Made by a program: the position numbers and the translations under genes
Shown: piece after piece, positions 641 through 42,008 of the stretch
How the letters are laid out: the number at the start of each line of letters is the position of its first letter
Position numbering within the stretch: position 1 is the stretch's first letter
Source of the DNA: Ignavibacteriales bacterium
GTDB lineage: Bacteria; Bacteroidota; Ignavibacteria; UBA10030; UBA8401
Length of the DNA: 64,000 bases
Assembly: GCA_016182545.1 (NCBI GenBank)
Contig: JACPGG010000032.1
Location: 8,816 to 72,815 of the forward strand
Direction of reading: 5' to 3'
The notes under the pieces: model-generated
Database searches by the model: none
Seen by the model: only the letters and a program-made list of their open reading frames with translations
Told to the model about the DNA's origin: nothing

Positions 641-642
641 AT

Positions 643-4847: not shown

Positions 4848-4883
4848 TTTTCAATTTTGAATTTGTAATTTTTAACTGTTTCT

Positions 4884-5489: not shown

Positions 5490-5518
5490 TAACTCATGGT
5501 ACGCAGAATAAGAAAAAC

Positions 5519-5632: not shown

Positions 5633-5714
5633 TTTCCATTATTGAGTAACATCAGTTAATAAAGAATAGATTTTCCACATCTTGAAGATTTGGAAAATCT
5701 AAAAAAGGATTCCA

Positions 5715-6059: not shown

Positions 6060-6119
6060 CCACAAATGCACAAAGACACCAAATGGACTGTATTCGTGAT
6101 TTTGTGTCTTTGTGGTTGA
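6057..6119 (+). terminator. Imperfect hairpin (aaccacaaa…caaagacac / gtgtctttgtggtt) between ybaB and recR
   Basis: Inverted repeat seen directly in the sequence. There is no clear U-tract, so it may be an attenuator or RNA structure rather than a strict terminator. Confidence 0.35.
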
Positions 6120-8643: not shown

Positions 8644-8644
8644 C

Positions 8645-10156: not shown

Positions 10157-12041
10157 TTACTTGTAACTTCGCTGTGTCGGTTTTACGTATTCAAAATCGA
10201 GATCTTCTTTATGCAATACCTGTTTTTTCCCGGGACCCTTGTATTCCCACGCTGCTACATATGAGAACTTCTTGTCGTTCCGTTTGGCTTCTCCCTCTTC
10301 GGTCTGGAATTCTTCGCGGAAGTGTCCTCCGCATGATTCCTCGCGGTTCATCGCATCCATCGCTATCAACTCTCCCAACTCCATAAAATCGGCGACACGC
10401 TGCGCTTTTTCCAGTTCCATGTTGATCTCGTGCGCATTACCTGTGATCTTCACATTCTTCCAGAACTCTGCACGGATCTTCGGGAGAAGGGTCAGTGCCT
10501 TTTTCAATCCTTCTTTATTCCGCGCCATGCCGACATAATCCCACATCACTTTCCCGAACTCGCGGTGATATTCATCCACCGTTTTCTTCCCGTCGATCCC
10601 CATCAGTTTGTTGATCGTTGCGGTGACGGAATTTTCAGCATCTTTGAATTCCTTGGCATCGGTCGAGACTGCATTGAACTTGTTGCTCGCCAGATAATCA
10701 CTGACGGTGTACGGAGCGATGAAATATCCATCAGCTAATCCTTGCATCAATGCGCTCGCACCCAGCCGGTTCGCACCGTGGTCGGAGAAGTTCGCTTCGC
10801 CGAGGACGAACATACCCGGGATGGTGCTCATCAAATTGTAATCAACCCACAATCCGCCCATCGTGTAGTGCACGGCGGGATAAATGCGCATCGGCGTTGT
10901 GTACGGATCTTCGCCGGTGATCTGTTTGTACATGTCAAGCAGGTTACCGTATTTTTGGAAGACCGCTTCTTTCCCCAACCGTTTTATTGCATCGGCAAAG
11001 TCGAGATAGACCGCCATCTTCGATGCGCCGACACCGAATCCGTTGTCGCACATTTCTTTGGCTCGGCGTGAAGCGACATCGCGCGGCACAAGATTTCCGA
11101 ATGACGGGTACTGGCGCTCAAGATAATAATCGCGTTCACTTTCCGGAATATCTTTCGGGTTGCGCGTGTCCCCTTTCTTTTTCGGTACCCACACCCGCCC
11201 GTCGTTGCGCAAACTTTCACTCATCAATGTCAGTTTGGATTGGTGATCACCGGTGACAGGAATGCATGTCGGATGGATCTGCGTATAACACGGATTGCCG
11301 AAGTGCTGTTGCGTTACTCGCTTTTGCGTTGGTGGAAAGATAGAAGACATTGCCGTATCCACCTGTTGCAAGAATGACGGCGTCGGCAGAGTACGATTCC
11401 AATTTTCCGTTGAGCAGATTCCGTGCGACGATGCCGCGCGCTTTTCCGTCGACCACGACGAGATCGAGCATTTCACGCCGTTCATAAAATTTTACCGAAC
11501 CTGCATCCATCTGCCGGATGAGTGCGGAGTAGGCACCGAGCAGCAATTGCTGTCCGGTCTGTCCGCGGGCATAAAATGTCCGTGCGACCTGTGCACCGCC
11601 GAACGAACGATTGTCCAGATATCCGGCATAATCACGCGCAAACGGAACACCTTGCGCAACGCACTGGTCGATGATACTGCCGCTTACTTCTGCCAATCTA
11701 TACACATTCGCTTCGCGGGCTCGATAATCGCCCCCCTTCAACGTATCATAGAACAAGCGATAGACACTGTCGCCGTCGTTAGAATAATTCTTCGGAGCGT
11801 TGATCCCGCCCTGTGCAGCAATGCTATGCGCACGGCGGGGTGATTCATGGTACGAGAAGGCGAGGACGTTGTAGCCGAGTTCGCCGAGGGAGGCGGCGAC
11901 GGACGATCCTGCAAGTCCGGTACCGACCACGATGATCTTGTACTTCCGTCTGTTGGCGGGATTCACAAGTTTCATGTGAAATTTGTGTTCGAACCATTTC
12001 TTTTCTATCGGACCATCGGGAATTTTCGAATCGAGTGTCAT
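10157..12041 (-). pseudogene. sdhA: Succinate dehydrogenase / fumarate reductase flavoprotein subunit, split into two out-of-frame ORFs (frameshift with small deletion near 11,303)
   Basis: The N-terminal ORF 11247..12041 (FAD-binding GTGLAGS…[20 protein letters not shown]) and the C-terminal ORF 10157..11485 ([15 protein letters not shown]…[11 protein letters not shown]…) overlap in different frames. NATA abuts FGNPC directly, with a +1 shift. The conserved segment of about 10 aa (AWKAHKRGAF in B. subtilis-type enzymes) between them is missing. Confidence 0.8.
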
Positions 12042-12107: not shown

Positions 12108-12782
12108 CTACCTCATCATTGCCACCGCGCTGCCGCCGTAAAAATAAATGTAGAGAGGAATGATCGCGAAGCCGATCGGGATCACAAGCCAAAAGAGGAC
12201 GGCGATGAATTCGATCAACCCGCCGTACCGCTTCGTTTTCCATCCCAATGTCTGGAAAGCCGATTGGAATCCGTGCCGCAGATGATAACTGAGTACGACA
12301 AGGGCAACAAGATAGAAGACGACAAAAAAAGTCTGGCGGAACGTCGCATAGACAAGAGAGGAGAGATTCTGTTCACCTAAAATTCTTGCCGGAACCCAGA
12401 ACTTTGCAAGATGAACGACCAGAAATACAAATACCAGCGAAGCAGAAACTGCCATCATTCGCGATTGAAATGTCGTATTCTCCTCCAACTTGTATGACGC
12501 ATATCTCTTATCCCGCGCGCGACGATTAGAAAACCAAATGAATGTTCCGTTGATAATATGGATGAGTATAATTGCAAACAGACCAATTTCAAGCGTCCTG
12601 ACTATTGGATTGCCACCCATAAAATGTGCGTATGCATCGAACGCTTCGCCACCGTCCTTCTTCAGTAAAAGAAGATTGCCCGCAAGATGTTCGACAAGGA
12701 ATGTGCAAAGGAAGATACCGGTCAAACTCATGAGGATCTTTTTGCCGACCGATGAATTGATGAAAGCGAAAAAGGCATTCAT
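12108..12782 (-). CDS. sdhC: Succinate dehydrogenase / fumarate reductase cytochrome b subunit (Bacillus/Bacteroides type, 5 TM)
   Basis: About 225 aa multi-TM protein immediately upstream of sdhA/sdhB on the same strand. Start chosen at the internal MNAFFAFINSSVGKKILMSLTGIF. Confidence 0.75.
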   Translation of the reverse strand: MNAFFAFINSSVGKKILMSLTGIFLCTFLVEHLAGNLLLLKKDGGEAFDAYAHFMGGNPIVRTLEIGLFAIILIHIINGTFIWFSNRRARDKRYASYKLEENTTFQSRMMAVSASLVFVFLVVHLAKFWVPARILGEQNLSSLVYATFRQTFFVVFYLVALVVLSYHLRHGFQSAFQTLGWKTKRYGGLIEFIAVLFWLVIPIGFAIIPLYIYFYGGSAVAMMR

Positions 12783-12939
12783 AGAAGTGCTGCGTTTGTG
12801 AAGAGAGCAAAAAATTAACTGCGGGCAAAGTATTAAAGAAATGGCAGAAATGCAATGAAGAGCGAAAATAAAAAGCAGAGCCTGCTGGTTATCTCGTTCC
12901 CAAACTCTCAGTGTGTGTGAAAACCAACTATTGAGTAAA

Positions 12940-13002
12940 GTCATTCTGAACGAAGTGAAGAATCCAGAATAATTCTGGATGTTTCGCTGCGCTCAACATG
13001 AC
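12940..13002. repeat. GTCATTCTGAACGAAGTGAAGAATC…GATGTTTCGCTGCGCTCAACATGAC palindromic intergenic repeat (GTCATTGCGAG family)
   Basis: gtcat…atgac outer arms and gaagaatccagaataattctggatgtttc inner palindrome. Located between the sdhC start and the cyclase gene end. Confidence 0.5.
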
Positions 13003-13045
13003 AATGCCTGACTTTTCACACAGTTTGCGACGTTGCGAACAAGAG

Positions 13046-13089
13046 AAAAAAAAAGATACAGGTGCGACTCACTTTCAAGGTGAGTCGCA
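13046..13089 (-). terminator. Rho-independent terminator of the CHASE2 cyclase gene (GGTGCGACTCAC-loop-GTGAGTCGCAC)
   Basis: Hairpin with an A-run upstream on the plus strand (T-run on the minus strand). The stem sequence is near-identical to the sdhB terminator stem at 9302. Confidence 0.65.
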
Positions 13090-13096
13090 CGATCAT

Positions 13097-15250
13097 TCAT
13101 TTCTTTGTCATCACGAACACGCCGTTCCAATCGTCCGGCGGCGGGTTGTCCACAAAAAGCATCGCACGCTGGATGTAGAGATTGGAAACGATGTCGTCCT
13201 TGCGGATAACGAGCGCCTGCTGGAACTGGTCGATGGCGCTCTTCCATGCCCGTTTCTTGTACGCTTCCAACCCGTTGTGGTAGGATTCGAGGAATTTTTT
13301 CGTCGCGTCGGTCTGCACTTCGTCTGCAAGCGCGATCAGTTCATAAATACGCACAGGTTCGGTCTTCCCCACAACGACGACAACATCCATCTCGCGCGAG
13401 AGGACTTTGTCATGCACTTTGCGATAGGTGTAATCGCTCATCAAGAGACGGGTGCCGTATTCTTTGTTCACTCCTTCAAGGCGCGATGCAAGGTTCACCG
13501 CATCGCCGATGGCGGTATAATTTAGCCGCGCTTCGGCACCCATATTGCCGACAACTGCTTTTCCCGTGTTGATGCCGATACGCTGATTCACAACCGGACG
13601 TCCGTAGTGGATCCATTTCGTATGCAATGCGAGCAGTTTGCGCTGCATTTTTAATGCGGCGCTGCAAGTATGGAACGCATGGTCGGCATCATCCAGCGGT
13701 GCGCCCCAAAATGCCATGATCGCATCACCGATGTACTTATCGATCGTGCCGTATTCCTCGATCATGATGTTTGTCATCTCAGTCAGATACGAGTTAAGCA
13801 TCGCCACGGTATTTTGCGGTCCCATCTTTTCCGCCATGCTTGTGAATCCTTCAATGTCGGCAAACATTGTAGTGATCTCACGCTCTTCACCCCCAAGTTT
13901 TACCAGTTCCGGATTATCGAGGATCTGCTTCACAACCGCTTTGTCGACGTACCGTTCGAACATCCCTTTGATCTGCGCTTTTTGACGTCCCTCGGTCGCT
14001 GCTGTATAACTCATTGCAGAGGCATAACAGAAGAAGAGTGCGAAGAGCGGCTCAATAAGATAATAGACCTCACCGTTATTCGTGAACGTGGAGAAGGCAA
14101 ACCATAGATACCCTGCGGTCACAAGAACTCCGATCGGGGCGCTCCAGCGGAGTTTCAGCAAGATCGCCGCGATGCTGACGATCAACGCCATGATGATGAG
14201 GACAAGCATCTGCGTTGCAAATGGAGCATGTGTAATATATTTCCCCATCATGATCTGGTCGTACACGTTGGCGTGGACAAAACAGTTCGGCGAAATTTCA
14301 GTGATCGGCGTTGCATTATGATCGCCGATGGATCGCGCCGTGGGACCTATGATCACGACTGCATCCTTGAACATCGACAATACTTCTTTATCCTGTTTTA
14401 CGAATGCATCGAGCACTTCCTGCAGCGATACCTGCTTGAAGACATCGTTCGAACCGGCATAATCGATCTGAGGATCGCCGTTCGATGAAAGCGGGATTTC
14501 CAACTGACCGGCGCGGACAAGCAATCCTGTTTCTGTCTCTTCTACCTTTACCGTTTGAAGATCGACCTGTGCGGCCGCAAATGCGAGCGCGGCGCCGAAT
14601 GTCGGATAATAATCCCCAGCAAATTCTACAAAGAACGGAACAGCGCGGATAATTCCGTCGATCGGATCCGGATGCAATAATACGTGTCCGATACCTGCCG
14701 CCAGACTTGCAAGCGAATCGAACGGGCGTTCATCAATGTACGTTGCACGAGGAAATCCGAATTGCGCACCGTGAGTCGGGATGGAGAGCGGGTGCAGAAA
14801 TTGATATGCTTCATTGTCGGTCGCCCTCGGTTCTCCCGGATTATCCTCCGAAGGGATGAACGGACCGATGGCATGATAGACATTCGGCGCATAATTGTGG
14901 AAAAGAAGGAATTGATCGTTCTGCGCCTGCGAGATGCTGTCCTGCCTTGTCGTCGGAAAAAGATCGTCGACTCCGATCACAGTGGCACCGCTTTGCGCAA
15001 GGATCGCCAGCAACGTGCCGTACTTGTCGCGTGGAACGGGATAATCCAGTTCCTTCATTGTGTATTCGTCGATCTTGACGATCACAACGTTGCTGGTGTG
15101 TTCACGTTCGCCGCGCGCATCGAGCATCGCATCGTACGCCTTGAGTTCGAGCGACTGAAAGAATTCGAAACGGAACAACCACGTGGCAAGCGCCACGGAA
15201 ACAACGGCAAACAAAATACCGAAGAGAGTCTTGAGGAGTTTTTTGTTCAT
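13097..15250 (-). CDS. CHASE2 sensor-domain adenylate/guanylate cyclase with C-terminal TPR-like region
   Basis: N-terminal signal/TM, periplasmic CHASE2-like region and 3 TM helices. Class III cyclase catalytic domain (ITTMFADIEGFTSMAEKMGP…IGDAIMAFWGAP…GINTGKAVVGNMG). Confidence 0.8.
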   Translation of the reverse strand: MNKKLLKTLFGILFAVVSVALATWLFRFEFFQSLELKAYDAMLDARGEREHTSNVVIVKIDEYTMKELDYPVPRDKYGTLLAILAQSGATVIGVDDLFPTTRQDSISQAQNDQFLLFHNYAPNVYHAIGPFIPSEDNPGEPRATDNEAYQFLHPLSIPTHGAQFGFPRATYIDERPFDSLASLAAGIGHVLLHPDPIDGIIRAVPFFVEFAGDYYPTFGAALAFAAAQVDLQTVKVEETETGLLVRAGQLEIPLSSNGDPQIDYAGSNDVFKQVSLQEVLDAFVKQDKEVLSMFKDAVVIIGPTARSIGDHNATPITEISPNCFVHANVYDQIMMGKYITHAPFATQMLVLIIMALIVSIAAILLKLRWSAPIGVLVTAGYLWFAFSTFTNNGEVYYLIEPLFALFFCYASAMSYTAATEGRQKAQIKGMFERYVDKAVVKQILDNPELVKLGGEEREITTMFADIEGFTSMAEKMGPQNTVAMLNSYLTEMTNIMIEEYGTIDKYIGDAIMAFWGAPLDDADHAFHTCSAALKMQRKLLALHTKWIHYGRPVVNQRIGINTGKAVVGNMGAEARLNYTAIGDAVNLASRLEGVNKEYGTRLLMSDYTYRKVHDKVLSREMDVVVVVGKTEPVRIYELIALADEVQTDATKKFLESYHNGLEAYKKRAWKSAIDQFQQALVIRKDDIVSNLYIQRAMLFVDNPPPDDWNGVFVMTKK

Positions 15251-15320
15251 GACAATTCCGTTTGGTGATAAGAGAAGGGAGGATTTTGCGCCATTGACGC
15301 ATGAGCCGGAGGCTCAAAAA

Positions 15321-15351
15321 CAAGTTACCCTCCAATTTGGAGGGTAACTTG
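15321..15351 (-). terminator. Rho-independent terminator (CAAGTTACCCTCC-loop-GGAGGGTAACTTG) after the 837-aa gene
   Basis: Perfect 13-bp stem followed by TTTTTG on the minus strand. Confidence 0.65.
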
Positions 15352-15375
15352 CTAAAAATTATTCAATTTATCCAA

Positions 15376-17889
15376 CTATATTTTCCAGTAGAGGAAATCC
15401 TTGATATTTGCCAACGCGGTCGGATCGATACCGCGTCTGCCCCCGAAGATGAATTTATTTTCACCGCGGCGGACTTGACGGCTGGTGGCACGTGCTTCTT
15501 TCCGCGCCTGCAGGTCTTGCAATGCGCTGAAGAGAAGGCTCTGCAATTCGCCCTTATCAATGACAACGTTCCGTTCAGCGGCGCGCGTCTGTCCCATTTC
15601 GGCGACGATATTTTCGATACCAAGTTCGGCATACGCCTGTTCCTGCGACGGGAATTTTGACACGGCGGTTGCGAACGACTCAACGGTGCCGTCATGATCG
15701 CCGCCGAGATATTTCAACAATCCCAGGTTGAGATGGATACCGCCATCTTTCTCATCCGATTTAACGGCGGCGGTGTAACTCTTGTAGGCATTCAACGAGT
15801 CACCTTTCAGCAGATAAACATTGCCGAGATTGTTCTGAGTGGATGCAGACTTGTACGCCTTGATCACGGCGATGGCATCGTCGTATTTGCCGGCGTTTGC
15901 CAACAAAACAGCCGCTTCATTTGCAGACTGTTCATTGTTCTGACCCTTGAGGTATGCAACCTTTTGATTGAGCATCTCTGTATTGCCTGCTGTCAGGCTT
16001 TGTGCATCGGCACTCAATAATTTTTCGATCTCTTCGGCAGAAGGAGTCGCCGCGACTTTTTCATCGCTGGCAAGATTGCTCGGCGGTGACATCTCCCACG
16101 ATTTGCGGACGTCGATCACGTCGAGTTTTCCATTGGCATCGACAGTCTTATAATATCCATCGGCGCCCATCTTCCATGCATCCGAGAACGGCTTGTTGAT
16201 GATCGTCGTTTCCAGCGGGATCCAAACCGTGTTGTCGGCGACAATATAATCACGCTCGTTCAAACTGACGCGCGACGCATTCTTCTTATTCACGCCGGTA
16301 TCGAACATGATGAAGATATGGTCGGATGTCCCGATCAGCTTTGTTCGAATGCCGAGGTTCTCCAAACACGATGCAATGAGAATCGAGCTGTCATCGCAGT
16401 CACCCGCTTTTTTTGCCAGTGTCTGGCGCGGAAATTGGATCTCGTCCAGCACATCTCCCTCAGCAACCACCCACGGATCGGAGACATAATTGATCGAGAA
16501 TGCGCGCACTGCGTCCCAGATCTTCATCGCATTGATCATATTGCGTGACGCATTCGGATATGAATTGGGATCGAACTTCACATTCCCGACAACATTACGG
16601 GAAAAATTCTCGACCGCCGCATCCTTGTAGGTAACGAATGCACCGACATGCGACGGACGGTTCCAGCTGATGGAATTTTTGCTGTAGATCGTCACCGGTT
16701 TTGTGATGCTGCGAACTTTTTCTTCACCTCCCTGATTGTATGCAATTTCAGTTTTGATCTGAGCAACGGTATTCTCGCTCACCGTCTGCAATTTATCTTT
16801 ATCGAGCGTAGCGGAAACATCGAACGCTTTTTTCTCGCCCGCTTTTAACAACGGGATCGTTTGTTCTGATGCCAGCGACATGTAGTTCGGAATGAAGATC
16901 TTCGCTTTGATATTCTTGATATCGGTCTTGCCGGTATTTTCCAATGTTACGGCGCCGATCGGATTCTTCGAATAGTACACGAACTGCGCGGGAAAGATAT
17001 TCTCCGCTTTGAATTCGGAGATCTCGAGCGCGCTCGACATGATCATACTTGCTTTTTTCACACCGCTCGTCTTGGTCGAGACATCCAACCGATTGCCCGA
17101 GGCACCGACGACCGAATATTCCTGCATCGCGGAGAATACTCTGCGGAGATCGTCAAGAGTCCCCTTCATCTTCACGTCGTACGAAGCGGCATCCCCTTCC
17201 ATATAACGCAGTTTCATACTCTGGATCATGGAGACCTTCTGAGGAAGTTCAGATTCGATCTTCACTAGCGTAGCATCGTTGACTCCTTGCAGAATAAGCT
17301 CGACGATGATCGGCTTCTCTTTCATCTCCTTCATTTTTGAGTCGAGCTGTGTCATAAGTTCCGCTGCGATCATGTCCCCTACCTCTTCAAGAGATTTGGA
17401 GGCGGCTTGCGCTTTTCCTTGAGCCGCTTTTTTGGACGAAGCACTTGCGACGGCAAGGATCTCGCCCGTATCGGTAATGATCAGTTTGACTTCGCCATCG
17501 GCGGTAAATTCGTTCGTTTTGATCCCGTACGTTTCACGTTCGCCGCCGAACATGGTCTGTGCACCGCCGGCGATGATCAATTCAGCGCCGTACCGTCTGC
17601 CGAGTTCCTTCGCTTTAGTGGGATTCAGATCGCCCATCGCAAGATCGCGACCACGGACCTGTTCGAATTGTTTCGAATCGACAATGCGGTACCCTTTTTC
17701 AAGCAGCGCTTTTTCGATCTTGCCTGCAACTTTACGAGCCGTTGCATCTTTATCATCAATTTTTTCATCGACAGCCACCATAACGCGCGGCATATCCTGT
17801 GCGAAAAGCAGCATCGGCTGGATTGCTCCGACAAGCAGCGAACAGACACAGAGTAACGAAAGAATGCGTTTCATATTTCTTCTCCTCAT
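15376..17889 (-). CDS. Secreted multidomain protein: N-terminal CsgG-like domain, central transglutaminase-like cysteine-protease domain, C-terminal TPR repeats
   Basis: Signal peptide. …KAKELGRRYGAELIIAGGAQ… resembles the CsgG/LpoB-type fold. AGDCDDSSILIASCLENLGIRTKLIGTSDHIFIMFD matches the transglutaminase-like Cys…His…Asp core. The C-terminus has TPR-like repeats. Confidence 0.55.
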   Translation of the reverse strand: MRRRNMKRILSLLCVCSLLVGAIQPMLLFAQDMPRVMVAVDEKIDDKDATARKVAGKIEKALLEKGYRIVDSKQFEQVRGRDLAMGDLNPTKAKELGRRYGAELIIAGGAQTMFGGERETYGIKTNEFTADGEVKLIITDTGEILAVASASSKKAAQGKAQAASKSLEEVGDMIAAELMTQLDSKMKEMKEKPIIVELILQGVNDATLVKIESELPQKVSMIQSMKLRYMEGDAASYDVKMKGTLDDLRRVFSAMQEYSVVGASGNRLDVSTKTSGVKKASMIMSSALEISEFKAENIFPAQFVYYSKNPIGAVTLENTGKTDIKNIKAKIFIPNYMSLASEQTIPLLKAGEKKAFDVSATLDKDKLQTVSENTVAQIKTEIAYNQGGEEKVRSITKPVTIYSKNSISWNRPSHVGAFVTYKDAAVENFSRNVVGNVKFDPNSYPNASRNMINAMKIWDAVRAFSINYVSDPWVVAEGDVLDEIQFPRQTLAKKAGDCDDSSILIASCLENLGIRTKLIGTSDHIFIMFDTGVNKKNASRVSLNERDYIVADNTVWIPLETTIINKPFSDAWKMGADGYYKTVDANGKLDVIDVRKSWEMSPPSNLASDEKVAATPSAEEIEKLLSADAQSLTAGNTEMLNQKVAYLKGQNNEQSANEAAVLLANAGKYDDAIAVIKAYKSASTQNNLGNVYLLKGDSLNAYKSYTAAVKSDEKDGGIHLNLGLLKYLGGDHDGTVESFATAVSKFPSQEQAYAELGIENIVAEMGQTRAAERNVVIDKGELQSLLFSALQDLQARKEARATSRQVRRGENKFIFGGRRGIDPTALANIKDFLYWKI

Positions 17890-17899
17890 TTTATTTTTA

Positions 17900-18664
17900 T
17901 TATTTCAATTTCGTAATCAATGCTGCCATCTCGTCAACCTTTTGCTTGGCAGGTTCGTATCCGTCGGATTCATCCCATGCTTTTTGATATGTGGATTTTG
18001 CATTTTCAAATGCGGCTTTCGCTTCGGGTCTTTTCCCTTGCTTTTCCAATTTCTTCCCTTGATCCTCAAAATCGAGTGCTTGCGCGTACGTAACGTATCC
18101 GTTAAAATTGCCGTCTTTCGTCGCTTCAAGCCGATCTTCATCTTCGGACGAGAGTTTCACTTCAAGATCGCCAGCAATTTTCTTTACAAGCGATTGCAGC
18201 ATCGTGAGGAATTCATCCAATTCGCCGGTCTCCTCTTCCGCTTTCACTGTTTCACCGGTCTCCGTACGCACGATGCGCACATCGATACGAAGTTTGTCGT
18301 TGAAAAGGTTGGAAAAACCGCCGAACAGCATCACCTGGGCGCCGAGTAATTTGCCCATATTCTGCGTGGTCGCTTTGTCCACCATTTCGGTTTCATTGAG
18401 ATTCAATTCTTCGATGATCGACTGGATACGCTGGCGTTCTACGACCTTGATCCCCTTTACTTTGGACATCTCGGTGATCATCATATCGGCGAGCCCTTTT
18501 TTTAACGGATCGAGTTTATCCTTGTCGACAACGCTGTTATTCTCAAAATACAACACCGCGATTGTTTTCGGATTGCTGGCAAGTGTCGGCTGCACAAAAA
18601 CGATGCTGCATGCAAGAACGACACTCAATGCAACGGCACCAAACGTGGTATGATTGTACTTCAT
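17900..18664 (-). CDS. CsgG-family (curli-secretion-channel-like) lipoprotein
   Basis: Lipoprotein signal LACS. KTIAVLYFENNS…LKKGLADMMITEMSKVKGIKVVERQRIQSIIEELNL…LLGAQVMLFGG…RIDVRIVRTETGE is the CsgG-domain pattern. Confidence 0.6.
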   Translation of the reverse strand: MKYNHTTFGAVALSVVLACSIVFVQPTLASNPKTIAVLYFENNSVVDKDKLDPLKKGLADMMITEMSKVKGIKVVERQRIQSIIEELNLNETEMVDKATTQNMGKLLGAQVMLFGGFSNLFNDKLRIDVRIVRTETGETVKAEEETGELDEFLTMLQSLVKKIAGDLEVKLSSEDEDRLEATKDGNFNGYVTYAQALDFEDQGKKLEKQGKRPEAKAAFENAKSTYQKAWDESDGYEPAKQKVDEMAALITKLK

Positions 18665-18708
18665 ACTGTTATCCTTCCGGAAATTATAATGAATAATGTG
18701 AAATATTT

Positions 18709-19878
18709 TCAAAACGAAATTTTCAATCCCATGCCGATCTCAAACCCGCTGATCTCGTAGAATGAATCGTCGATCGTGATATTGCCGAATGAATACCGGA
18801 TGTTCAACGTCGGGAACAAAATGTCCGAAACGATGAACACAAAGTCCGCACCTGCCGAACCGATCTCTGCATTCCCCGATTCGACCAGTTGACCGCCTAA
18901 TTGAAATTGATCGGGTGTATAATATTTTGCCTCCAGGACCGCACTCCCGACCAACCACTCGTTCAATTGGTGCGTCAATGAGTATTGCCCTTCTGCCTGC
19001 AATCCGGCGTCAAATTTTGTTGATACCGAGTCAGTGATGGATGTATTCTGCAACCGATATCGAACGCGCGAACTCAACTGATGATTGTATGCCCCGGTCT
19101 TCAAGGAGTAGACAGCGAACATGATAGCACGCGGTCCTGATTGAAATATTTTTTTTCCGTCCAATTTATCTTCCAGAAAGTATGTACCCGAAACATCGAA
19201 TGAGAATCGCGCCTCTTTTGAAAATGTGATAAAATCAAGCCCGACATTAACCGATACTTCGTCTCCCGCATCATATGTAATGCTTGCTGCCTCAATCGGT
19301 TCATAGGAGCCTTTATATGCAAATGAAGTCCCGACGCCAAAGACGAGGCGACGTGTAAACGCTGTTGCATAGGCAATCCCAACATTGCCCCCAAATCCTT
19401 GACCGAATACCGGTACCTTCATTCCGAGTGCCGCCTGAGAAATTATTGTCGATGTTTTCAATTCTGTATTTGATAATTTTGTTTTCCCTGTCGGGATACT
19501 TGCACCGGCTGCGATCCAAAATTTCTCTCCGGGGAGTACGTACGATAAAGAAATTCTCGTATCCGCTATTCCCTGTAATTCAGATGTATCTGCAGTCGTC
19601 ATCCCGGCTGAATTTGCAACTGCCAATAACATCCGATTCGAAATCGGAACTGCAATTGACAGCGGTGCTGACTGTTGGGACACGGTGCCGTAGCCCGACA
19701 ACGTATATTGCTGCTGGACTGCACCGGTCGTAACCCCTGTTGCCCCACGAAAAAGCATTTTATCGTCGTATCCCGGTTTGGCTATTTGGGCGTAGAGCGA
19801 ATTCAAGAGAAGAATCCCTGGTAAAAGAACAGCCCAAATATGGAGAGAGCGGAGTTTGAAAGATGTAATAATCATCAC
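18709..19878 (-). CDS. Outer-membrane beta-barrel protein (uncharacterised)
   Basis: Signal peptide, alternating amphipathic beta-strand pattern and a C-terminal …GLKISF with terminal Phe typical of OMPs. Confidence 0.5.
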   Translation of the reverse strand: MMIITSFKLRSLHIWAVLLPGILLLNSLYAQIAKPGYDDKMLFRGATGVTTGAVQQQYTLSGYGTVSQQSAPLSIAVPISNRMLLAVANSAGMTTADTSELQGIADTRISLSYVLPGEKFWIAAGASIPTGKTKLSNTELKTSTIISQAALGMKVPVFGQGFGGNVGIAYATAFTRRLVFGVGTSFAYKGSYEPIEAASITYDAGDEVSVNVGLDFITFSKEARFSFDVSGTYFLEDKLDGKKIFQSGPRAIMFAVYSLKTGAYNHQLSSRVRYRLQNTSITDSVSTKFDAGLQAEGQYSLTHQLNEWLVGSAVLEAKYYTPDQFQLGGQLVESGNAEIGSAGADFVFIVSDILFPTLNIRYSFGNITIDDSFYEISGFEIGMGLKISF

Positions 19879-19887
19879 ATTTAATGG

Positions 19888-22800
19888 TTATTTGATGAGC
19901 GTCATCTTCTTAACGTTTGTGTAATTATTTGCCTGTAATCTATAGTAATAAACACCACTTGCAACAGCTTTTTTGCCATCATCAGTACCATTCCAGGCGA
20001 CAACATACGTGCCAATCGGCTGGAATTCCTGAACAAGTGATTTTACTCTTTGCCCTAACGTATTGAAAATCTCCAACTTAACATGAGAACTGTTTGAGAG
20101 TGAATACCGTATCGAGGTCGCCGGATTGAACGGGTTGGGAAAATTTTGCGCAAGAGAGTATTCGAGGGGAATGATCGGGATGCCGTTTGTATTCGATTCT
20201 ACAAATTGTTGATTCCCGACCAGGATCCGAATTTCCTTTGATTGTTCCTTCTTGTCAAACGTCAATACATGAGAAAGAGATTGAGTGACTTCATGCACCC
20301 GTTCTTTCGATACATGAAGTATAAAAATTTTAAAATCGGAAGGGAGGGTACCGATCTTATTCAAAACGATAGTAACAGGGATCCCGGAGGTACTCGATGA
20401 TACATTGATATCCCAATATTGTCCTTCACGGGAGAGCGGTTTATAATCTGCCGCGAGCCGATCGCCATTATTTCTGATCGAAAGGGAGAGATAATCTGTC
20501 GGCGCGGTCGGCGGTTCGGAAAAATCTTCATCATCAATGCCGTCAACCGAATTGTTCAACATACCGATATAGTTCAGTTCATCGGATCCTCTCTTCGACA
20601 GTGCAGAAATTTGAAGTTTCCATTCTTGCGGTTCGAGATTTCTCTCCGGATCACTTTTCGGCAACGAAGATGTGGATGTCAATTGCGTAGAACTGATCTT
20701 GATCGTTTTTGCAGTCTTTCCTCTGTTCTTGATGAAATATCCTTTGAACGGTTTCATCACCGACGATGTCGTGTCGAACTCCTTGTCGAAGAACCATAAC
20801 ACGCGCTCAACACTATCCGCTTTGAAAGAATTTGTCCAGCTGACCTCATACGGAAACGGATTGCCGATCATATTGTAACCCGGCTGCAGCAGGATCTCGA
20901 AATCCTCTTCCGTTCCTTGTACTTCCGTCGTACCGAAATTGACTTCGATGGATTGTTTCGTGATCAACCAGTATCCCTCTCCTCGCCGGATCGATTTGAA
21001 GTCTTCCGGAAATTCCGCGTACGCCCCTCTTTTGTCGTTCCATTTCCCAAACATTCTCCATACAAGATCGTTCGGCGGTCCGAGATCTTTAAAAAGCGCA
21101 AGTACGGAAGAGTCTGTAAAATTGTACGGGATGCTGATAAGTTTGTACGCTTCCTGCGGTGTCGGCTCCGGAAGTTGAGCGAGTAGATTGTCCACCAGTC
21201 CGAATATATTGAATGCAAACCGAAGGTTATTCCCGCCGAAAATTCCGTACGGTTTCGTCGTATCATCCAGATCTCCGTTCCACCAGATATCATAGTCCGA
21301 TATGACGATGATCTTCCCCTTCCCGACTTGCGAATATGCGGCAATGGGAGCAAATAAAATAGGCGTTACGGAAGAATCAAGAGAGTTGACCGAGACGAGG
21401 TCCGGCGATCGTGCGGCAAGAAGAGGAATGACATTGTTCACGGTCGTGTCAATCTTCAAACTTCCGGGAGCGAATAAGACGACGCTGTCGATTCCGTACG
21501 TGAGAACATTCTTGGTGACAGGATATGCAGCAACATAACCGGCTAGAGAGGAATCTTTCAATGATATATCTGCGATAAGATCCGTATTGAATTGAATCCC
21601 TATTTTCACGTTGTGCTTTTTCCACGTCGTGTCGTGCAGGAACAGATTAAATGTCGAGGCTGATTGTATTCCAAAGTCTCCCAATGCAACAATCGTTCCT
21701 CCGTTGAGGACAAATTTCTGGAGCGAGTCTATGTCCTTACTCTGGGGGGGACCTTCAGGCTGAACATAAACCGCTGCGTTGTAATTGGAAAATGGAATCA
21801 ACTGAGTCGTATCGACTTTGATATCGGCGCGCTCCAGACTCAATTTCAAAAGATTAAAGTATTCAAACTGCCGCGAACTGTCATGTGCAACGAAACCTAC
21901 GTCATCGAACAACACTCGACGAGTTTTAAAATTCCGCGCCACTCCTGTTCCCTGGAAACGCAACTTCACTCCGGGAAATCTTGGATCGGTGGTCGTGAAA
22001 ACCATGTATGTCTGCTTTACGCCGGTCGACGCAGGAGTAAAACGGACGGGAAGCAACACAGATTGTCCGGTATCGATAACAACCGCTGCGCCTCCTTCGT
22101 ACTTGAACGATGCCGTATCCGAATTGCCGATGTAGTTCAATGTAATTGCTTTCAATCCAAACAGGTTATCCACTTCGAATTCAACGACTGAATCTTTCCC
22201 AACGGTCACAGAACCGAAATCGTACGTGAATTTCTCCAGCGAGTACCGCTCAAATGAATGACCGCGCAGAATGAATTGTAAGGAATCGAGAACGTCATCT
22301 GTCGTTCGAAATCGCAATACCGCCGTTTTGTTCCCAGCGAGCTTCGGAGAGAATTGTACTTGAAACGAAACAAACGAACCTTTTGGTATATCAAAATTAT
22401 CGGGACCAAGAATATGAAATGCGTTGGTGTCCGTTAATCCCGTAAATTGTACGATCACATTGCGTGCCCCCAGTGTGTTGCGCATGAAGACATTCAATGT
22501 CGTGTCCTTCCCTACTTGGATACTTCCAAAATTATATTCCGTTGTATCGACCGTCAGTTTAGATCTATCATTCAGTTCGATCTTATATCCCCCTTGTTCA
22601 CTCCCGACAAAATAAATATTGGCATCTTCGGCATGTGAACCGAGCAGATAGAACGGTTCTTGAGGTTGGGGATTCACGAGAATTTTCCATGTTGTGCCGC
22701 CGTCCGAGGTGGCAAAAATTCCTCCCGGTCCTGAAGCAATGACTCGCTTTGGATCAAACCTGTCATACTGCACATCATACACAGGGAGCGGTTGATTCAA

Positions 22801-24684
22801 TGAATCCCACGAACCACCACCGTTCGTCGTTCTGAATAATCTGAATGGTTGTCCTTGCGCTTCACCGTATACGGTGGAAAGAAAAATCTCTTTATTGTTT
22901 TGCGGATTCACAGTCGGGCTGAGCATTTCTATCGCAACCGGACCGCCAAGTGCGTTTGGGACCCCCTGCTTAGGCAGATTTGATGAAATATTAAAATCCC
23001 ACGTCAGCCCCAGATTTGTCGATTTATAAATGCCGTTGCCAGTAAAATATACAGTGAGTGAATCGATCGGATCGAATTCAATATTCTCCGGAATATGAAC
23101 TGTATCAAAACCGGGTGGTGATTGTCTATATGTCCATGTTTGTCCGCCATTGGTGCTGACATTGAGACCATAGGCACCGGCGTAGAACATGATCAAATCC
23201 GGATTTTTGGGTGAGATACGTATCGTCATATCGTTCTCACGTGTCGAATACTTATTCCATTTGACGATCTTTGTCGAATCGGGCACATACAGCGCCTGCC
23301 ACGATACACCGGCATTTGTTGAGCGATAAATCGTATAGGCAGATCCTGCATATACCATATTTCGTTTATCATCAGTAACAACGGCAGTAACGTAAGGATT
23401 TGTCAATCCAATGTTTGCCGATTGCCAATTCACCCCATCATCGGTTGACCGTTGAACACCACCGCCGAAGACGCCAGCGAAAATCAACGGCGTGCTGTTG
23501 GCAGTTGTCAGTGATGCAATATTTCTGATGATACGATTTCTAATGCCGCCATTCTTCTCCAGCCAGTTTTGCCCATCGTCTGTGCTGATAAAAACCCCAT
23601 TTGTAGTTCCAATGTAGATCTTTTGCCGATTCACACTCTTGGTTGGAATAAAAATCGATGTAATATCTCCCGTAAGCTGAGGAAATTTATTTTGAATGAT
23701 GCTGAAATTTGAAATTGTTCCGAAGTTGGAGCTTATCTTGAAAATACCATTGCTCGACCCCGATTGTTTTGGCGGTCCATCATAATCCGAAGCATTGGAT
23801 GCGATGTACAGATCGAATATATGTTTCAAAGAAAGGGTATCGAATCTTTCATACCGCAATTTCCCCGATGTCACGACTCCGCGAATCGGAAAATTGACAT
23901 CACTCCGTTTGATAGATTGCCATGTCGCGCCGAATTGATCTGTTTGAAGTCCATACACTCCGTCTGCAGTACCGATGAGGATACGGTAATCGGTTTTCCC
24001 CAGACCTGTTGAATCAATTTCAATAGTATAAATTTTTCTTGCGTCACCTTTTGGTAAACCGGGTATAAAAGGATTCCATGTCGTACCGCCGTTTGCAGTG
24101 AAGAATACTCCAATTGTATCTTCAAATCCCGTTGTAGCAGCGACACGCATGGTTGATAGGATATTGTCGCCCGGGTGGATCGAGATTCTAAAAATCGGTC
24201 TATTGCCGAAATATGCACCATCTTTCATCGGCTGCCAGGTATTTCCTCCGTCTGTAGAACGTAACACCCCGCCATCATCGGAACCGAACAACACAGAAGG
24301 AAGACTTGGCGCATACTGGACGGAATATTTTGGAGTCGGGGATCCTTGCACGGCAATCCAACTCAAACCTTTGTCGGCGCTGCGATATAGTCCAAACGAT
24401 GTAGGGAGAAGGATGGTATCTGAGGATAAGGGATGAAACGTCAGATCATGTATGACAGCTTGATTCGATTGAATTGCAGGTATATCAATTTTCGTCCATG
24501 AATCTCCTCCGTCTGATGATCGATAGAGATCTCGCTCACGCACGATCGCAATGACAACATCATCGGTCAAAGATCCTTGAAGATGGGAAATGACTCCCCC
24601 TTCGGGACCCAATGGAGAAATACTCGCTGTTTGAGAATAGAGAATGCTGCTCAACAGCATGACAAACGGAACGAATGTTTTCAT
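19888..24684 (-). CDS. Giant secreted BNR/Asp-box beta-propeller protein (sortilin/Ycf48-like repeats) with Ig-like domains and a T9SS C-terminal sorting domain
   Basis: 1598 aa with a signal peptide. It carries many S-x-D-x-G-x-T/S-W Asp-box motifs (SSDGGDSW, STDGGNTWQ, TANGGTTWNPF, STDDGQNW, STNGGQTW, TSDGGTTW…) and two ASH/choice-of-anchor-like Ig-fold repeats. The terminal ~80 aa are a T9SS-type CTD (…VKLEIFNTLGQRV…GVYYYRLQANNYTNVKKMTLIK). Confidence 0.75.
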   Translation of the reverse strand: MKTFVPFVMLLSSILYSQTASISPLGPEGGVISHLQGSLTDDVVIAIVRERDLYRSSDGGDSWTKIDIPAIQSNQAVIHDLTFHPLSSDTILLPTSFGLYRSADKGLSWIAVQGSPTPKYSVQYAPSLPSVLFGSDDGGVLRSTDGGNTWQPMKDGAYFGNRPIFRISIHPGDNILSTMRVAATTGFEDTIGVFFTANGGTTWNPFIPGLPKGDARKIYTIEIDSTGLGKTDYRILIGTADGVYGLQTDQFGATWQSIKRSDVNFPIRGVVTSGKLRYERFDTLSLKHIFDLYIASNASDYDGPPKQSGSSNGIFKISSNFGTISNFSIIQNKFPQLTGDITSIFIPTKSVNRQKIYIGTTNGVFISTDDGQNWLEKNGGIRNRIIRNIASLTTANSTPLIFAGVFGGGVQRSTDDGVNWQSANIGLTNPYVTAVVTDDKRNMVYAGSAYTIYRSTNAGVSWQALYVPDSTKIVKWNKYSTRENDMTIRISPKNPDLIMFYAGAYGLNVSTNGGQTWTYRQSPPGFDTVHIPENIEFDPIDSLTVYFTGNGIYKSTNLGLTWDFNISSNLPKQGVPNALGGPVAIEMLSPTVNPQNNKEIFLSTVYGEAQGQPFRLFRTTNGGGSWDSLNQPLPVYDVQYDRFDPKRVIASGPGGIFATSDGGTTWKILVNPQPQEPFYLLGSHAEDANIYFVGSEQGGYKIELNDRSKLTVDTTEYNFGSIQVGKDTTLNVFMRNTLGARNVIVQFTGLTDTNAFHILGPDNFDIPKGSFVSFQVQFSPKLAGNKTAVLRFRTTDDVLDSLQFILRGHSFERYSLEKFTYDFGSVTVGKDSVVEFEVDNLFGLKAITLNYIGNSDTASFKYEGGAAVVIDTGQSVLLPVRFTPASTGVKQTYMVFTTTDPRFPGVKLRFQGTGVARNFKTRRVLFDDVGFVAHDSSRQFEYFNLLKLSLERADIKVDTTQLIPFSNYNAAVYVQPEGPPQSKDIDSLQKFVLNGGTIVALGDFGIQSASTFNLFLHDTTWKKHNVKIGIQFNTDLIADISLKDSSLAGYVAAYPVTKNVLTYGIDSVVLFAPGSLKIDTTVNNVIPLLAARSPDLVSVNSLDSSVTPILFAPIAAYSQVGKGKIIVISDYDIWWNGDLDDTTKPYGIFGGNNLRFAFNIFGLVDNLLAQLPEPTPQEAYKLISIPYNFTDSSVLALFKDLGPPNDLVWRMFGKWNDKRGAYAEFPEDFKSIRRGEGYWLITKQSIEVNFGTTEVQGTEEDFEILLQPGYNMIGNPFPYEVSWTNSFKADSVERVLWFFDKEFDTTSSVMKPFKGYFIKNRGKTAKTIKISSTQLTSTSSLPKSDPERNLEPQEWKLQISALSKRGSDELNYIGMLNNSVDGIDDEDFSEPPTAPTDYLSLSIRNNGDRLAADYKPLSREGQYWDINVSSSTSGIPVTIVLNKIGTLPSDFKIFILHVSKERVHEVTQSLSHVLTFDKKEQSKEIRILVGNQQFVESNTNGIPIIPLEYSLAQNFPNPFNPATSIRYSLSNSSHVKLEIFNTLGQRVKSLVQEFQPIGTYVVAWNGTDDGKKAVASGVYYYRLQANNYTNVKKMTLIK

Positions 24685-24687
24685 GAA

Positions 24688-26085
24688 TTAATTTACCGGC
24701 GGCTTCGGCGGTTCGGGGAGCGGTCGCGAAATAACCGGCGGCGGTTGGTTCTGGTTGCCGGTACCCGGATTCAAATTATTATTGATGTTGCCGATCAAGT
24801 TATTGAGCCTGTCACCAATGCTCCCTCCCCCGGGGCGATTGATCGGATTGCTGGATGGTACCAATGTCGGAGGTGATAAGCTCAATGGAGAACTTGAGGT
24901 TGACGTACTGCTTGTTGATACTGTATTGGGTTGCTGATTGTTTTCAGATTGTTGTTGGCTGCCGGATTGTTCCGTCGTTGGTCCGACAATTTGTTCGGAT
25001 TTCTTAGCGGATGATGCGCTGGTTTTTGCCTGAGAAAAATTCGGATCTGTTATCGCCGCCTGGGAATACGCTTCATACGCCTGTGTGTACATACCTCTGT
25101 CTTCATAATCCAAGCCGCGCGAATATTGAAGGAATGCAAAAAAGTTCTCTGTTGGGATTTCAAGAATCGCTTCACGTTCTTCATCGGTGAGTTTGATCTT
25201 CATTTCTTCGATGAGTTTGAAGACGAGATCTTTTTCAAGACGGAAGAAATCTTTGATGTTGCCCGAAATATTCGTTGTTACATCCAATTGACCTGTCTTC
25301 GTCTGTGCCACAAATGCATCGATGTTGACCTTGTCATCCTTAAGTTCAAAATATGAACCTTTCACCAAACGATATGCCCCAAGCAAGTTACCAAGCCGCG
25401 GAGCGGTCTTTTGATCCACAAGATCGGTTTCTCCGAGGTTCATTTCCTGTATCAGTTGTTGAAGCCGTATCCGCTCTATCACTTTTAAAGACCTTACCTT
25501 TGAAAGATCGGTGATGATCATCTCTGCCAGTCCTTTTTGCAACGGATTCAGTTCAGCCTTTTGTCCTTTATTTTCAAAATAGAGTATTGCAACGGTGTTG
25601 GAAGGAATTTTCGAGACATCAAGTTGCTTCTCCATTTGAAGTGCGCGTTGCGCTTCAATCTCCATTTGTTGACGGTACAATAATTTTATCCTGGACTCGA
25701 CCAGTTCTCTATACTCCCCGAAGAAGGTCAATTCGTTGTACAAACGGTAATTCTGTATCGCCTTGTTGTAGTCTTTGCTTGCTTCATAACTTGCAGCCAA
25801 ATAATACGCTGCCTGATCGTCTTCATCATCCATCTTCAAAACTTTGTCAAATGTCTTTATCGCTTCAGCATATTGCTTTTTGTTATAGAGGGCAATCCCC
25901 ATGAGCCGATGATATTCTGCCTCATTGGGTTCCAGAACAACGGCACGCCGCATGCGGGCAAGAGCTTCGTCGTTGCGACCTTGTTCAATAAGTGATGTGG
26001 TGATATCTGTTAGAGAGGGACCGCAGGAAACCAGAAAAAATGCCGTGAAAAGAGATGGAAATGCAAGGCGTGTTATGCTATTCAT
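24688..26085 (-). CDS. TPR + CsgG-like domain lipoprotein with Q/N/S/T/P-rich low-complexity C-terminal tail
   Basis: Lipobox LVSCG and TPR repeats. The CsgG-like core (NTVAILYFENKGQKAELNPLQKGLAEMIITDLSKVRSLKVIERIRLQQLIQEMNLGETDL…LLGAYRLVKGSY) is paralogous to 17900..18664. It ends in a tail of about 90 aa rich in Q/N/S/T/P. Confidence 0.6.
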   Translation of the reverse strand: MNSITRLAFPSLFTAFFLVSCGPSLTDITTSLIEQGRNDEALARMRRAVVLEPNEAEYHRLMGIALYNKKQYAEAIKTFDKVLKMDDEDDQAAYYLAASYEASKDYNKAIQNYRLYNELTFFGEYRELVESRIKLLYRQQMEIEAQRALQMEKQLDVSKIPSNTVAILYFENKGQKAELNPLQKGLAEMIITDLSKVRSLKVIERIRLQQLIQEMNLGETDLVDQKTAPRLGNLLGAYRLVKGSYFELKDDKVNIDAFVAQTKTGQLDVTTNISGNIKDFFRLEKDLVFKLIEEMKIKLTDEEREAILEIPTENFFAFLQYSRGLDYEDRGMYTQAYEAYSQAAITDPNFSQAKTSASSAKKSEQIVGPTTEQSGSQQQSENNQQPNTVSTSSTSTSSSPLSLSPPTLVPSSNPINRPGGGSIGDRLNNLIGNINNNLNPGTGNQNQPPPVISRPLPEPPKPPVN

Positions 26086-26273
26086 GGATAAACTCCAGAT
26101 TCTCACACGAATATTGTAAAATTTGCAGCAGTAGTCAACAAATCTCATAGAGTCTCACTATTTTAAAGAGTTTTAGCGGGGTAATCGATGAATACTGTGC
26201 ACAACAAACAGTACTTTGCACTCTAATGCCGTACGGAATATCACAGGTTCCCCTTTATTGTGATATACAGCGA

Positions 26274-26756
26274 TTATTCTTCCTCGCCGCCCCCCATAAG
26301 TTCTTCAGCAGCAGATTGAGCCCATGCGGCAAGCGTATCACGCTCAGCATCAGTGAGATCTGCTTCGGGATGAAGGGGTATATATTTGGGGAGAGGCATC
26401 TCCTTTTCTTTCACCGCACTGTTGATACCTCCCAAAATACTCGCCTTCTTTGACATGCGGTATTTTCCCCACTCGGACATATTGAAATGTTTTCGTCCTT
26501 CCGAAACATCGTACGAAACAAGCCACGAAGCAGGTGCAACATAAGCATAGAATGGCCAACGGGTTTCATTGGAATGACAATCATAGCAGCCGCGATCGAG
26601 CAATGAAACTATGTTCGCCGGCACATTCAATTCCGCCTGCATTGTCATTGCAGGATCAAATTGCGGGTTGTCCCTATTCGGTTGAATGAACTGGATCAAA
26701 ACAAAGATAACACAGGTAACAACGAAAAATACCTTCACAATGTGCTTGTACTTCAT
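26274..26756 (-). CDS. Haem-binding domain protein (CxxCH, membrane-anchored)
   Basis: N-terminal TM, then CYDCHSNETRWPFYAYVAPASW, the haem-binding-domain family signature. Confidence 0.6.
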   Translation of the reverse strand: MKYKHIVKVFFVVTCVIFVLIQFIQPNRDNPQFDPAMTMQAELNVPANIVSLLDRGCYDCHSNETRWPFYAYVAPASWLVSYDVSEGRKHFNMSEWGKYRMSKKASILGGINSAVKEKEMPLPKYIPLHPEADLTDAERDTLAAWAQSAAEELMGGGEEE

Positions 26757-26894
26757 GACTGACCTTTGAGTGGTTTGGGTTGGCTGAGAGAATATGAACA
26801 AACTCGAATAAAATTGCAAACTCTTACATCACACTTCCTTGCCTCTACGGTTATCCTTTCTTATTATTGACTATCATTAACATTGGAGTTATGA

Positions 26895-35566: not shown

Positions 35567-35592
35567 AGCTCGTATCCTTTTTTCAGTGTGAA

Positions 35593-41976: not shown

Positions 41977-42008
41977 TTGTGTGTACTATGTTCGATTGAA
42001 AGGACTAC

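Follow-up and report, generated by a model that had tools for sequence, protein, structure and literature searches.

The closest functional analogue of the locus reported here is the Lap system of Pseudomonas and its relatives (LapA, LapG, LapD and LapE), which is made up of a giant adhesin, a pore in the outer membrane, the periplasmic transglutaminase-fold protease LapG and the inner-membrane, cyclic-nucleotide-linked protein LapD (PMC3032545, PMC4359373). LapG also cleaves CdrA, an adhesin that is not exported by the type I secretion system (T1SS) (PMC4694147). The locus itself lies on a stretch of 64,000 nucleotides from an Ignavibacteriales bacterium (assembly GCA_016182545.1, contig JACPGG010000032.1, positions 8,816 to 72,815), which as a whole is referred to as the window, and comprises five genes, g1 to g5, and a gene for a CHASE2 cyclase. 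We tentatively read it as a conserved cell-envelope module that serves giant surface proteins exported by the type IX secretion system (T9SS), with a logic resembling that of Lap and with parts that are not orthologous to it. To our knowledge, the holding, processing or shedding of giant T9SS surface proteins has been described only in a few Bacteroidota models (PorU/PorZ attachment, SprF-type partners), and we know of no signal assigned to CHASE2 cyclases. Literature searches on CsgG-like plus transglutaminase-like proteins, on CsgG plus T9SS plus tetratricopeptide repeats (TPR), and on PelC/CsgG/TolB returned no description of the cluster. The interpretation of the module as a whole is one of comparative genomics of uncultured bacteria. 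An earlier, sequence-only reading of the window had described a closed operon of five genes, with three CsgG-like domains, a beta-barrel and a giant T9SS cargo, and had proposed a machine for surface proteins or fibres. Coordinates below are those of the window.

24688-26085, minus strand: g1, lipoprotein with TPR and a compact CsgG-N/TolB-N-like domain
19888-24684, minus strand: g2, giant T9SS cargo of 1598 aa
20155-21171, minus strand: block of g2 (about aa 1172-1510, about 330 residues) preceding its C-terminal sorting domain (CTD), here the pre-CTD block, traced by tblastn and jackhmmer over 70 loci
19891-20142, minus strand: T9SS type A C-terminal sorting domain of g2 (TIGR04183)
18709-19878, minus strand: g3, outer-membrane beta-barrel
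17900-18664, minus strand: g4, lipoprotein with a compact CsgG-N/LpoB-like domain
15376-17889, minus strand: g5, secreted protein of 837 aa with a transglutaminase-like core
16090-16677, minus strand: transglutaminase-like core of g5 (Cys498, His524, Glu560)
13097-15250, minus strand: CHASE2 sensor with a class III adenylate/guanylate cyclase (CHASE2 145 bits, Guanylate_cyc 77 bits)
15315-15352, minus strand: hairpin separating g5 from the cyclase gene, an intrinsic terminator or attenuator
26274-26819, minus strand: haem-binding-domain protein (PF14376, 157 bits), a possible further member

The positions of the open reading frames (ORFs) agreed with the earlier description of five co-directional genes on the minus strand. 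Their packing was tight at three junctions, with gaps of 3 nt between g1 and g2, 9 nt between g2 and g3 and 10 nt between g4 and g5. The 4-nt overlap proposed for g3 and g4 arises solely from an upstream TTG start of g4; with the ATG at 18664, a start shared by orthologues of 254 aa, the two genes are separated by 44 nt. The terminator anticipated after g5 could be located at about 15320-15352, 24 nt past the g5 stop, as a strong hairpin with a 16-bp stem followed by UUUUU (dG -26.9 kcal/mol, z = -5.6). This hairpin is missing at two of the loci compared below, L037 and L044, at which g5 and the cyclase gene are contiguous or overlapping. Proteins 100% identical to g3 and g4 carry the locus tags HYV29_03980 and HYV29_03975, respectively.

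Among the species genomes of GTDB, a scan identified 68 loci, each of them in a metagenome-assembled genome (MAG) of the Ignavibacteriota type. The sequence-only reading had staked itself on synteny in relatives, and the full order g1-g2-g3-g4-g5-cyclase was found in 21 species-level genomes (20 loci of a group termed clade A, and L044), with flanking genes that vary. Identity of g5 was 59-95% in clade A and 45% in L044. The cyclase gene adjoined g5 in 36 of 36 clade A/L044 loci with a visible flank and is the sixth member of the module here. Within clade A, identities were about 80% for g4, g5 and the cyclase, about 68% for g1 and about 45-50% for g2 and g3, an unevenness in keeping with periplasmic parts that are conserved and surface parts that evolve fast. 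Alongside g5, the most conserved gene was g4 (76-94% identity in the closer clade A loci; 51-54% in the most divergent ones and in L044). The haem-binding gene was found 5' of g1 in closer clade A and in L044; no match to it was obtained in the divergent clade A loci L027, L031-L035, L037 and L054, one of which has a transketolase gene upstream. At L023 and L029, extra T9SS cargo genes occupy the g2 slot.

In a sister clade (clade C), g5 homologues of 42-46% identity were found to follow a giant with a length between 1469 and 5329 aa, the head of which consists of Laminin-G, FG-GAP, fn3 or BNR domains and the final approximately 430 residues of which align to residues ~1170-1598 of g2. CsgG-N-like genes precede the giant at the seven loci with a visible upstream side, one of them only partly visible: two such genes at five loci and one at the other two (L046, L063). 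They encode either a lipoprotein of about 190 aa or a protein of about 238 aa in which a C-terminal membrane helix precedes an LPxAPxxP tail. The CHASE2 cyclase gene lies divergently upstream in all six sister-clade loci whose far flank could be seen. At L046, two giants with a pre-CTD block flank g5 (494-9961 and 12756-18413).

Profile matches to g2 bore out its description as an Asp-box/BNR propeller and immunoglobulin-like (Ig) protein with a T9SS domain. Downstream of a signal peptide, visible in the sequence as the hydrophobic N-terminus MKTFVPFVMLLSSILYS/Q, it contains Sortilin/BNR propellers (89.8 bits), two choice-of-anchor D Ig domains and a DUF4350/GldG-like domain that scored marginally below the Pfam cut-off (30.1 vs 30.4 bits). 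Signal-peptidase sites of the type A|Q or S|Q are readable in g2, g3 and g5. The type A sorting domain of g2 (aa 1515-1594) scored 33.5 bits with TIGR04183 (cut-off 23) and 21.4 bits with Pfam Por_Secre_tail, under the cut-off of 27. The pre-CTD block was common to every giant protein preceding a g5 homologue, whatever its N-terminal part; these giants have variable heads and lengths between 1135 and 5329 aa. The block, the alignment of which is invariant at Y, P, W-R, G-N-P, W, D..D...PP and G..W, matched no family of Pfam or NCBIfam. For g2 overall, identity had dropped to about 45-50% where g5 retained about 82%. The evolutionary core of the module is g5, the cyclase and the pre-CTD block of the cargo; the lipoproteins are second to these, and the barrel is specific to one clade.

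For g5, an AlphaFold2 model (pLDDT 80.5) was used together with alignments of relatives. The model comprises two FlgT/TolB-N-like alpha/beta domains (35-190 and 194-272), a CARDB-like Ig sandwich (288-401), an alpha+beta core (405-600) and TPR repeats (618-770), the last of which had been expected and were also found by profile. Family matches were limited to TPR, plus sub-threshold CARDB, DUF553 and Transglut_core. Scores of 13.9 bits with PF01841 (cut-off 23) and 14.7 bits with PF04473 (cut-off 20.5) lie below gathering; PF01841 was also matched below threshold by 20 of 34 g5 relatives (best E 0.001), and in the same transglutaminase-like test (PF01841/PF04473) the relatives P0333 and P0309 reached 22.3 and 20.0 bits. 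The three residues Cys498, His524 and Glu560, in the motifs GDCDDSS ... SDHIFIMF ... WIPLETT, were invariant in alignments of 34, 27 and 17 sequences spanning 24-86% identity. In the model, Cys498 is placed at the N-terminus of a helix (498-511), which is followed by strands at 525-534 and 554-559, with His524 and Glu560 placed on neighbouring strands, so that the core is predicted to be a papain/transglutaminase arrangement in which Glu replaces Asp. The Cys-His-Asp core of the earlier description is thus kept in its Cys, its His and their canonical order, with Glu as the third residue and a profile score below threshold.

The N-terminal part of g5 had been called CsgG/LpoB-like, which holds at the level of fold and not at that of sequence. 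Foldseek matched it to GNA1162, FlgT, an LPHT ring and pre-pore CsgG (E 3e-5 to 1e-4), among them FlgT 3w1e (E 7.5e-5) and 8z5n and CsgG 4uv2 (E 1.4e-4). No CsgG or LpoB match was obtained for g5 itself at E <= 0.1, and LpoB was matched very weakly by 4 of 34 aligned relatives (best E 0.007). No flagellar genes are present in the cluster. At L071 (9635-11815, an uncultured bacterium) and L072 (Candidatus Auribacterota), a full-length CsgG fused to FlgT_C is encoded after a protein of 370 aa that resembles the N-terminal two-domain unit of g5 and has weak FlgT_N and DUF2066 matches, with a Maf-like gene (MptE-like domain) two genes further downstream; this is possibly a different, flagellum-related pairing of the same folds. 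At its other end, g5 carries a conserved C-terminus, FGGRRGxDPT..IK.FLYWK (15376-15480), which is predicted to be unstructured and is a candidate docking peptide, e.g. for TPR domains. An NCBIfam match of residues 311-623 to 'anti-phage ProA' (E 2.8e-18) was set aside, as it reached 64.8 bits against a cut-off of 1500 and is taken to reflect the shared Ig plus transglutaminase-like unit alone; the model could not be traced in the literature. Nor was a defence system indicated by PADLOC, whose only matches among the six proteins were one of the cyclase domain to Pycsar cyclases, attributable to general class III homology, and a weak one of the g1 TPR.

Like Lap, the module brings together a giant surface protein, an outer-membrane barrel, a predicted periplasmic cysteine enzyme of transglutaminase fold and an inner-membrane protein that has a periplasmic domain besides its cytoplasmic cyclic-nucleotide module. 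When the profile of the g5 core was searched against the PDB, the sole sequence match was LapG of P. fluorescens (4U65_E), which was weak (E 0.22, 66 columns) and spans the G-D-C-(E/D)-D motif; a distant g5 relative is also found in a T1SS giant-adhesin operon (L077, described below). The differences are considerable. LapG has a Cys-His-Asp triad and about 200 aa, whereas g5, with Cys-His-Glu, is 837 aa long and also contains FlgT-like, Ig and TPR domains, and the Pfam scan at E <= 0.1 gave no match of g5 to any LapG/BTLCP family model. LapD is a GGDEF-EAL receptor for cyclic di-GMP, in contrast to the CHASE2 class III cyclase here, and the Lap substrate is a T1SS protein with an N-terminal retention module, whereas the substrate here is a T9SS protein with its conserved block at the C-terminal end. 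By sequence, partner type and secretion route, the module is outside the Lap family.

In the mechanism that we propose, g2 would be exported by T9SS, and its pre-CTD block would act as a handle that holds it at the outer membrane or presents it for processing. The lipoproteins g1 and g4 and the barrel g3 may form an outer-membrane platform. As the catalytic component, g5 would be a cysteine protease or transamidase of the periplasm, with the handle of the cargo or a platform protein as its substrate, and it would communicate with the periplasmic CHASE2 domain, by which the status of the surface protein could be coupled to cyclic AMP or cyclic GMP.

Several observations weigh against this reading. 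A T9SS cargo is expected to be wholly outside the cell, where it would be hard to reach for a periplasmic enzyme. At L007 and L038, g2 is cleanly absent while g1, g3, g4, g5 and the cyclase gene stay; these represent two separate losses, because the two loci are not mutual nearest relatives. The barrel gene g3 is absent from the whole sister clade. Homologues of g4 at 64% identity stand alone beside succinate dehydrogenase (sdh) genes in other genomes. A subfamily of g5 relatives of about 1680 aa has, apart from the cyclase gene, housekeeping genes as its neighbours, including lpxA and fabZ, and four other distant relatives have neither a CHASE2 gene nor a giant beside them. Finally, the genomes compared are all MAGs. 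With the cyclase as a further member, g4 on its own elsewhere, g2 lost twice and g3 missing from the sister clade, the idea of a closed unit of five genes had to be given up.

Some of the same observations would be expected if the cluster served general maintenance of the envelope or of peptidoglycan, the main rival explanation, which we consider rather unlikely. Under it, g1 and g4 would contact peptidoglycan or its synthases, g5 would be an enzyme of papain fold with peptidoglycan or envelope proteins as its substrate, and the giant cargo would be a mere frequent neighbour. Retention of the other genes after loss of g2, the solo g4 genes beside sdh and the lpxA and fabZ neighbours of the long g5 relatives are in keeping with it, as is a Pfam LpoB match of g4, narrowly above the cut-off (24.1 vs 22.3 bits). 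That match is however far below the level of the NCBIfam LpoB equivalog TIGR02722 (26.6 bits vs a cut-off of 110.55). A single-sequence PDB search with g5 returned TPR matches alone. TPR matches to LpoP and ActH, activators of penicillin-binding proteins (PBPs) and amidases, also speak for this rival, but reflect the TPR repeats only. No peptidoglycan-binding or PBP gene is present in the cluster. The pre-CTD block of the upstream giant co-varies with g5 in both clades, at about 45 loci; retention of one specific block is not expected of a mere neighbour.

The g5 core family was then followed beyond the phylum. A search with the Ig plus transglutaminase-like core (323 aa) gave 2401 cluster representatives at E <= 1e-3, 1022 of them at E <= 1e-30. 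The proteins have about 300-1714 aa (some are truncated), are named only 'TPR protein' or 'beta-propeller', and occur in proteobacterial and Nitrospirota MAGs as well. At L077, where all these genes are on one strand, a 4203-aa adhesin-like protein, a T1SS set (ABC transporter, membrane fusion protein and OEP protein) and a CHASE2 cyclase are encoded ahead of a g5 relative of 1254 aa. The subfamily of about 1680 aa was collected in a metagenome scan with a core alignment of six sequences; the flank could be seen at roughly 36 of its loci, and at about 12 of these a CHASE2 plus Guanylate_cyc gene lies directly upstream. As the neighbours are otherwise housekeeping genes, this subfamily gives no independent support for a link to giants. 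At L158 (4482-8832), a distant NHL-TPR-transglutaminase-like g5 relative lies divergently beside an sdh operon, the same neighbourhood as that of the window cluster and of the solo g4 genes.

The distribution of the family invites a broader and more speculative proposal, to which we give a low probability. A CHASE2 cyclase and a periplasmic Ig-transglutaminase-TPR enzyme with Cys-His-Glu could form a widespread, undescribed and non-orthologous counterpart of LapD/LapG that controls retention or release of giant adhesins by whatever export route (T9SS here, T1SS at L077). The Ignavibacteriota would have recruited to it TolB-N-like lipoproteins and a private barrel, and the enzyme would recognise the handle of about 330 residues. 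Its family comprises over 2400 clusters, from Ignavibacteriota, Proteobacteria and Nitrospirota.

The pairing of g5 relatives with a CHASE2 cyclase, seen in three lineages, is also what would be expected of outside-in sensing. Here the giant would be a receptor or adhesin, the state of which is relayed via the platform and via g5, as a scaffold or adaptor, to the cyclase, with the cyclic nucleotide rather than adhesin release as the output. The extracytoplasmic position of the CHASE2 domain suits this scheme, and so do the TPR repeats of g5 and its conserved, unstructured C-terminal motif, which are suited to docking. Strict invariance of Cys-His-Glu across more than 2000 relatives nevertheless favours catalysis over pure scaffolding, and many g5 relatives have no cyclase neighbour. 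We regard sensing of this kind as improbable, and the Lap-like module with a catalytic g5 is kept as the working interpretation.

The two lipoproteins were then compared with CsgG, the domains of which each contribute two transmembrane beta-hairpins to a 36-strand pore. Lipoboxes could be read directly from the sequence (FLVSC in g1, VLAC in g4). As anticipated, g1 combines TPR (three repeats, Pfam TPR_2 57 bits) with a CsgG match and a rich tail: the repeats are followed by the compact domain, one helical hairpin and a tail of about 110 aa rich in S, T, P, Q and N. In g4 the compact domain is followed by a helical tail rich in K and E. The two proteins are paralogous, with 37-39% identity across the domain and, in each, the compact domain leading into one helical hairpin. 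Both passed the cut-off of Pfam CsgG (PF03783; 20.8 bits), g1 with 34.8 bits over profile positions 11-97 of 210 and g4 with 53.6 bits over 7-98 of 210, so that the assignment of g4 to the CsgG family stands by score and extends to the N-terminal half of the profile only. In alignments with orthologues and sister-clade proteins, the domain has about 130 residues and its last strand runs directly into a helix; neither the alignment nor the profile match contained a counterpart of the second transmembrane hairpin of CsgG. A single-sequence PDB search with g4 gave no match, and a profile of the g1/g4 domain family matched E. coli CsgG in fragments only (E 0.02). On these sequence comparisons, the domains are read as periplasmic lipoprotein domains of the TolB-N/LpoB type rather than as channels. 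Within the fold group of CsgG, TolB-N, LpoB, FlgT and GNA1162, to which g1 and g4 belong by gathering score and the g5 N-terminus by Foldseek, the small periplasmic LpoB/TolB-N versions are closer to them than the hairpin-bearing CsgG.

The sequence-only reading had seen in these proteins a threefold CsgG fold and, in the g1 tail, an amyloid-prone sequence, from which pore-like assemblies secreting or anchoring a fibre or amyloid-like polymer could be imagined. This explanation is largely refuted and is left with a very small probability. What speaks for it are the PF03783 scores of g1 and g4, the Foldseek match of the g5 N-terminus to CsgG 4uv2, and the resemblance of the g3 barrel to, among many others, FapF and the exporters PelB, PgaA and BcsC. 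Against these stand the half-profile matches, the short domain with no space for a second hairpin, and the lack of any CsgG match for g5 by sequence; a genuine full-length CsgG, that of L071, looks different and covers profile positions 9-208. Family scans of the cluster genes and their flanks gave no equivalents of CsgA, CsgB, CsgE, CsgF or Hfa, and no curli, Fap or polysaccharide synthesis genes are present. A match to FapC was compositional (20 bits vs a cut-off of 195). The g1 tail is rich in S and T, contains 12-20% proline and, among 11 orthologues, is variable but for a terminal ...NPGTGNQNQPPP..PLPEPPKPP, ending here in PLPEPPKPPVN. On its composition, an amyloid reading was rejected; judged from the sequence, the tail is a spacer with a putative docking motif and no amyloid core. 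The motif PLPEPPKPP itself (24688-24720) is strongly conserved and predicted to be unstructured, and is a candidate docking peptide, e.g. for TPR domains.

The failed family tests support the earlier view that the cluster corresponds to neither curli, T9SS-core nor Lpo systems. As for the proposed machine for surface proteins or fibres, synteny and the TIGR04183 match uphold a conserved envelope module around a giant T9SS cargo, while the CsgG pore and the amyloid fibre largely fall away.

The assignment of g3 as a beta-barrel outer-membrane protein was supported by its AlphaFold2 model, a barrel of about 16-18 strands (pLDDT 82, pTM 0.76) in which the most conserved residues are on an in-barrel loop and helix (aa 106-165). 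Its distribution was restricted to clade A and L044. Foldseek returned generic porin and FadL matches (E ~1e-8), the highest TM-score being 0.50, with the PelB barrel (9h80_M). The protein was without a match in Pfam or NCBIfam, PorP/SprF and PorV/PorQ included. The SprF and PorQ proteins are known from work on Flavobacterium and Porphyromonas. A barrel gene beside a very large T9SS cargo, both fast-evolving, recalls PorP/SprF with SprB-type partners and PorV/PorQ; the module differs from these in the missing family match of g3, in a cargo sorting domain of type A rather than B, and in a sister clade without the barrel. A PorV/PorQ identity was also rejected by hhalign of the g3 family against the PorV/PorQ protein of the window (probability 0.3%). 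With the PelBC, PgaA and BcsC exporters the module shares TPR repeats, a barrel of about 16 strands and small lipoproteins, whereas the barrel likeness is generic (porins and FadL match equally), polysaccharide synthesis genes are lacking and the TPR are not fused to the barrel.

Elsewhere in the window, a second T9SS-related cluster is found at 53074-62150 on the minus strand, which includes the PorV/PorQ family protein mentioned above and a second protein with a sorting domain:

53074-54120, minus strand: PorV/PorQ family barrel (174.5 bits, cut-off 90)
54147-57224, minus strand: protein of 1025 aa without a family match
57282-60185, minus strand: CarboxypepD_reg plus TonB-dependent-receptor-like protein (family match)
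60285-62150, minus strand: protein of 621 aa with a T9SS sorting domain (family match)

At 10157-12041 on the minus strand, a succinate dehydrogenase/fumarate reductase flavoprotein is split into the overlapping ORFs 11247-12041 (the N-terminal part of FAD_binding_2) and 10157-11485 (the rest and Succ_DH_flav_C); it is a single 637-aa gene in relatives, and the split points to a frameshift, as either an assembly error or a pseudogene would show. At 34139-38289 on the minus strand, a DUF5723 protein (34139-35566; 84.5 bits) adjoins an 898-aa ORF without a Pfam or NCBIfam match. The region 42001-44608 has a GC content of 0.35, compared with about 0.47 elsewhere, and is possibly a small island, acquired or devoted to defence; its 363-aa ORF (43517-44608) weakly matched a model of a TIR-domain anti-phage reverse transcriptase (50.6 bits, cut-off 600).

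If the proposed reading is true, the module would represent a new regulatory layer, by which adhesion control of the Lap type would reach a further secretion system and a further second messenger. The analysis is also the first to place a large, unnamed family of Ig plus transglutaminase-like plus TPR proteins in a genomic context, and it offers g5 as a candidate periplasmic partner for CHASE2 cyclases.

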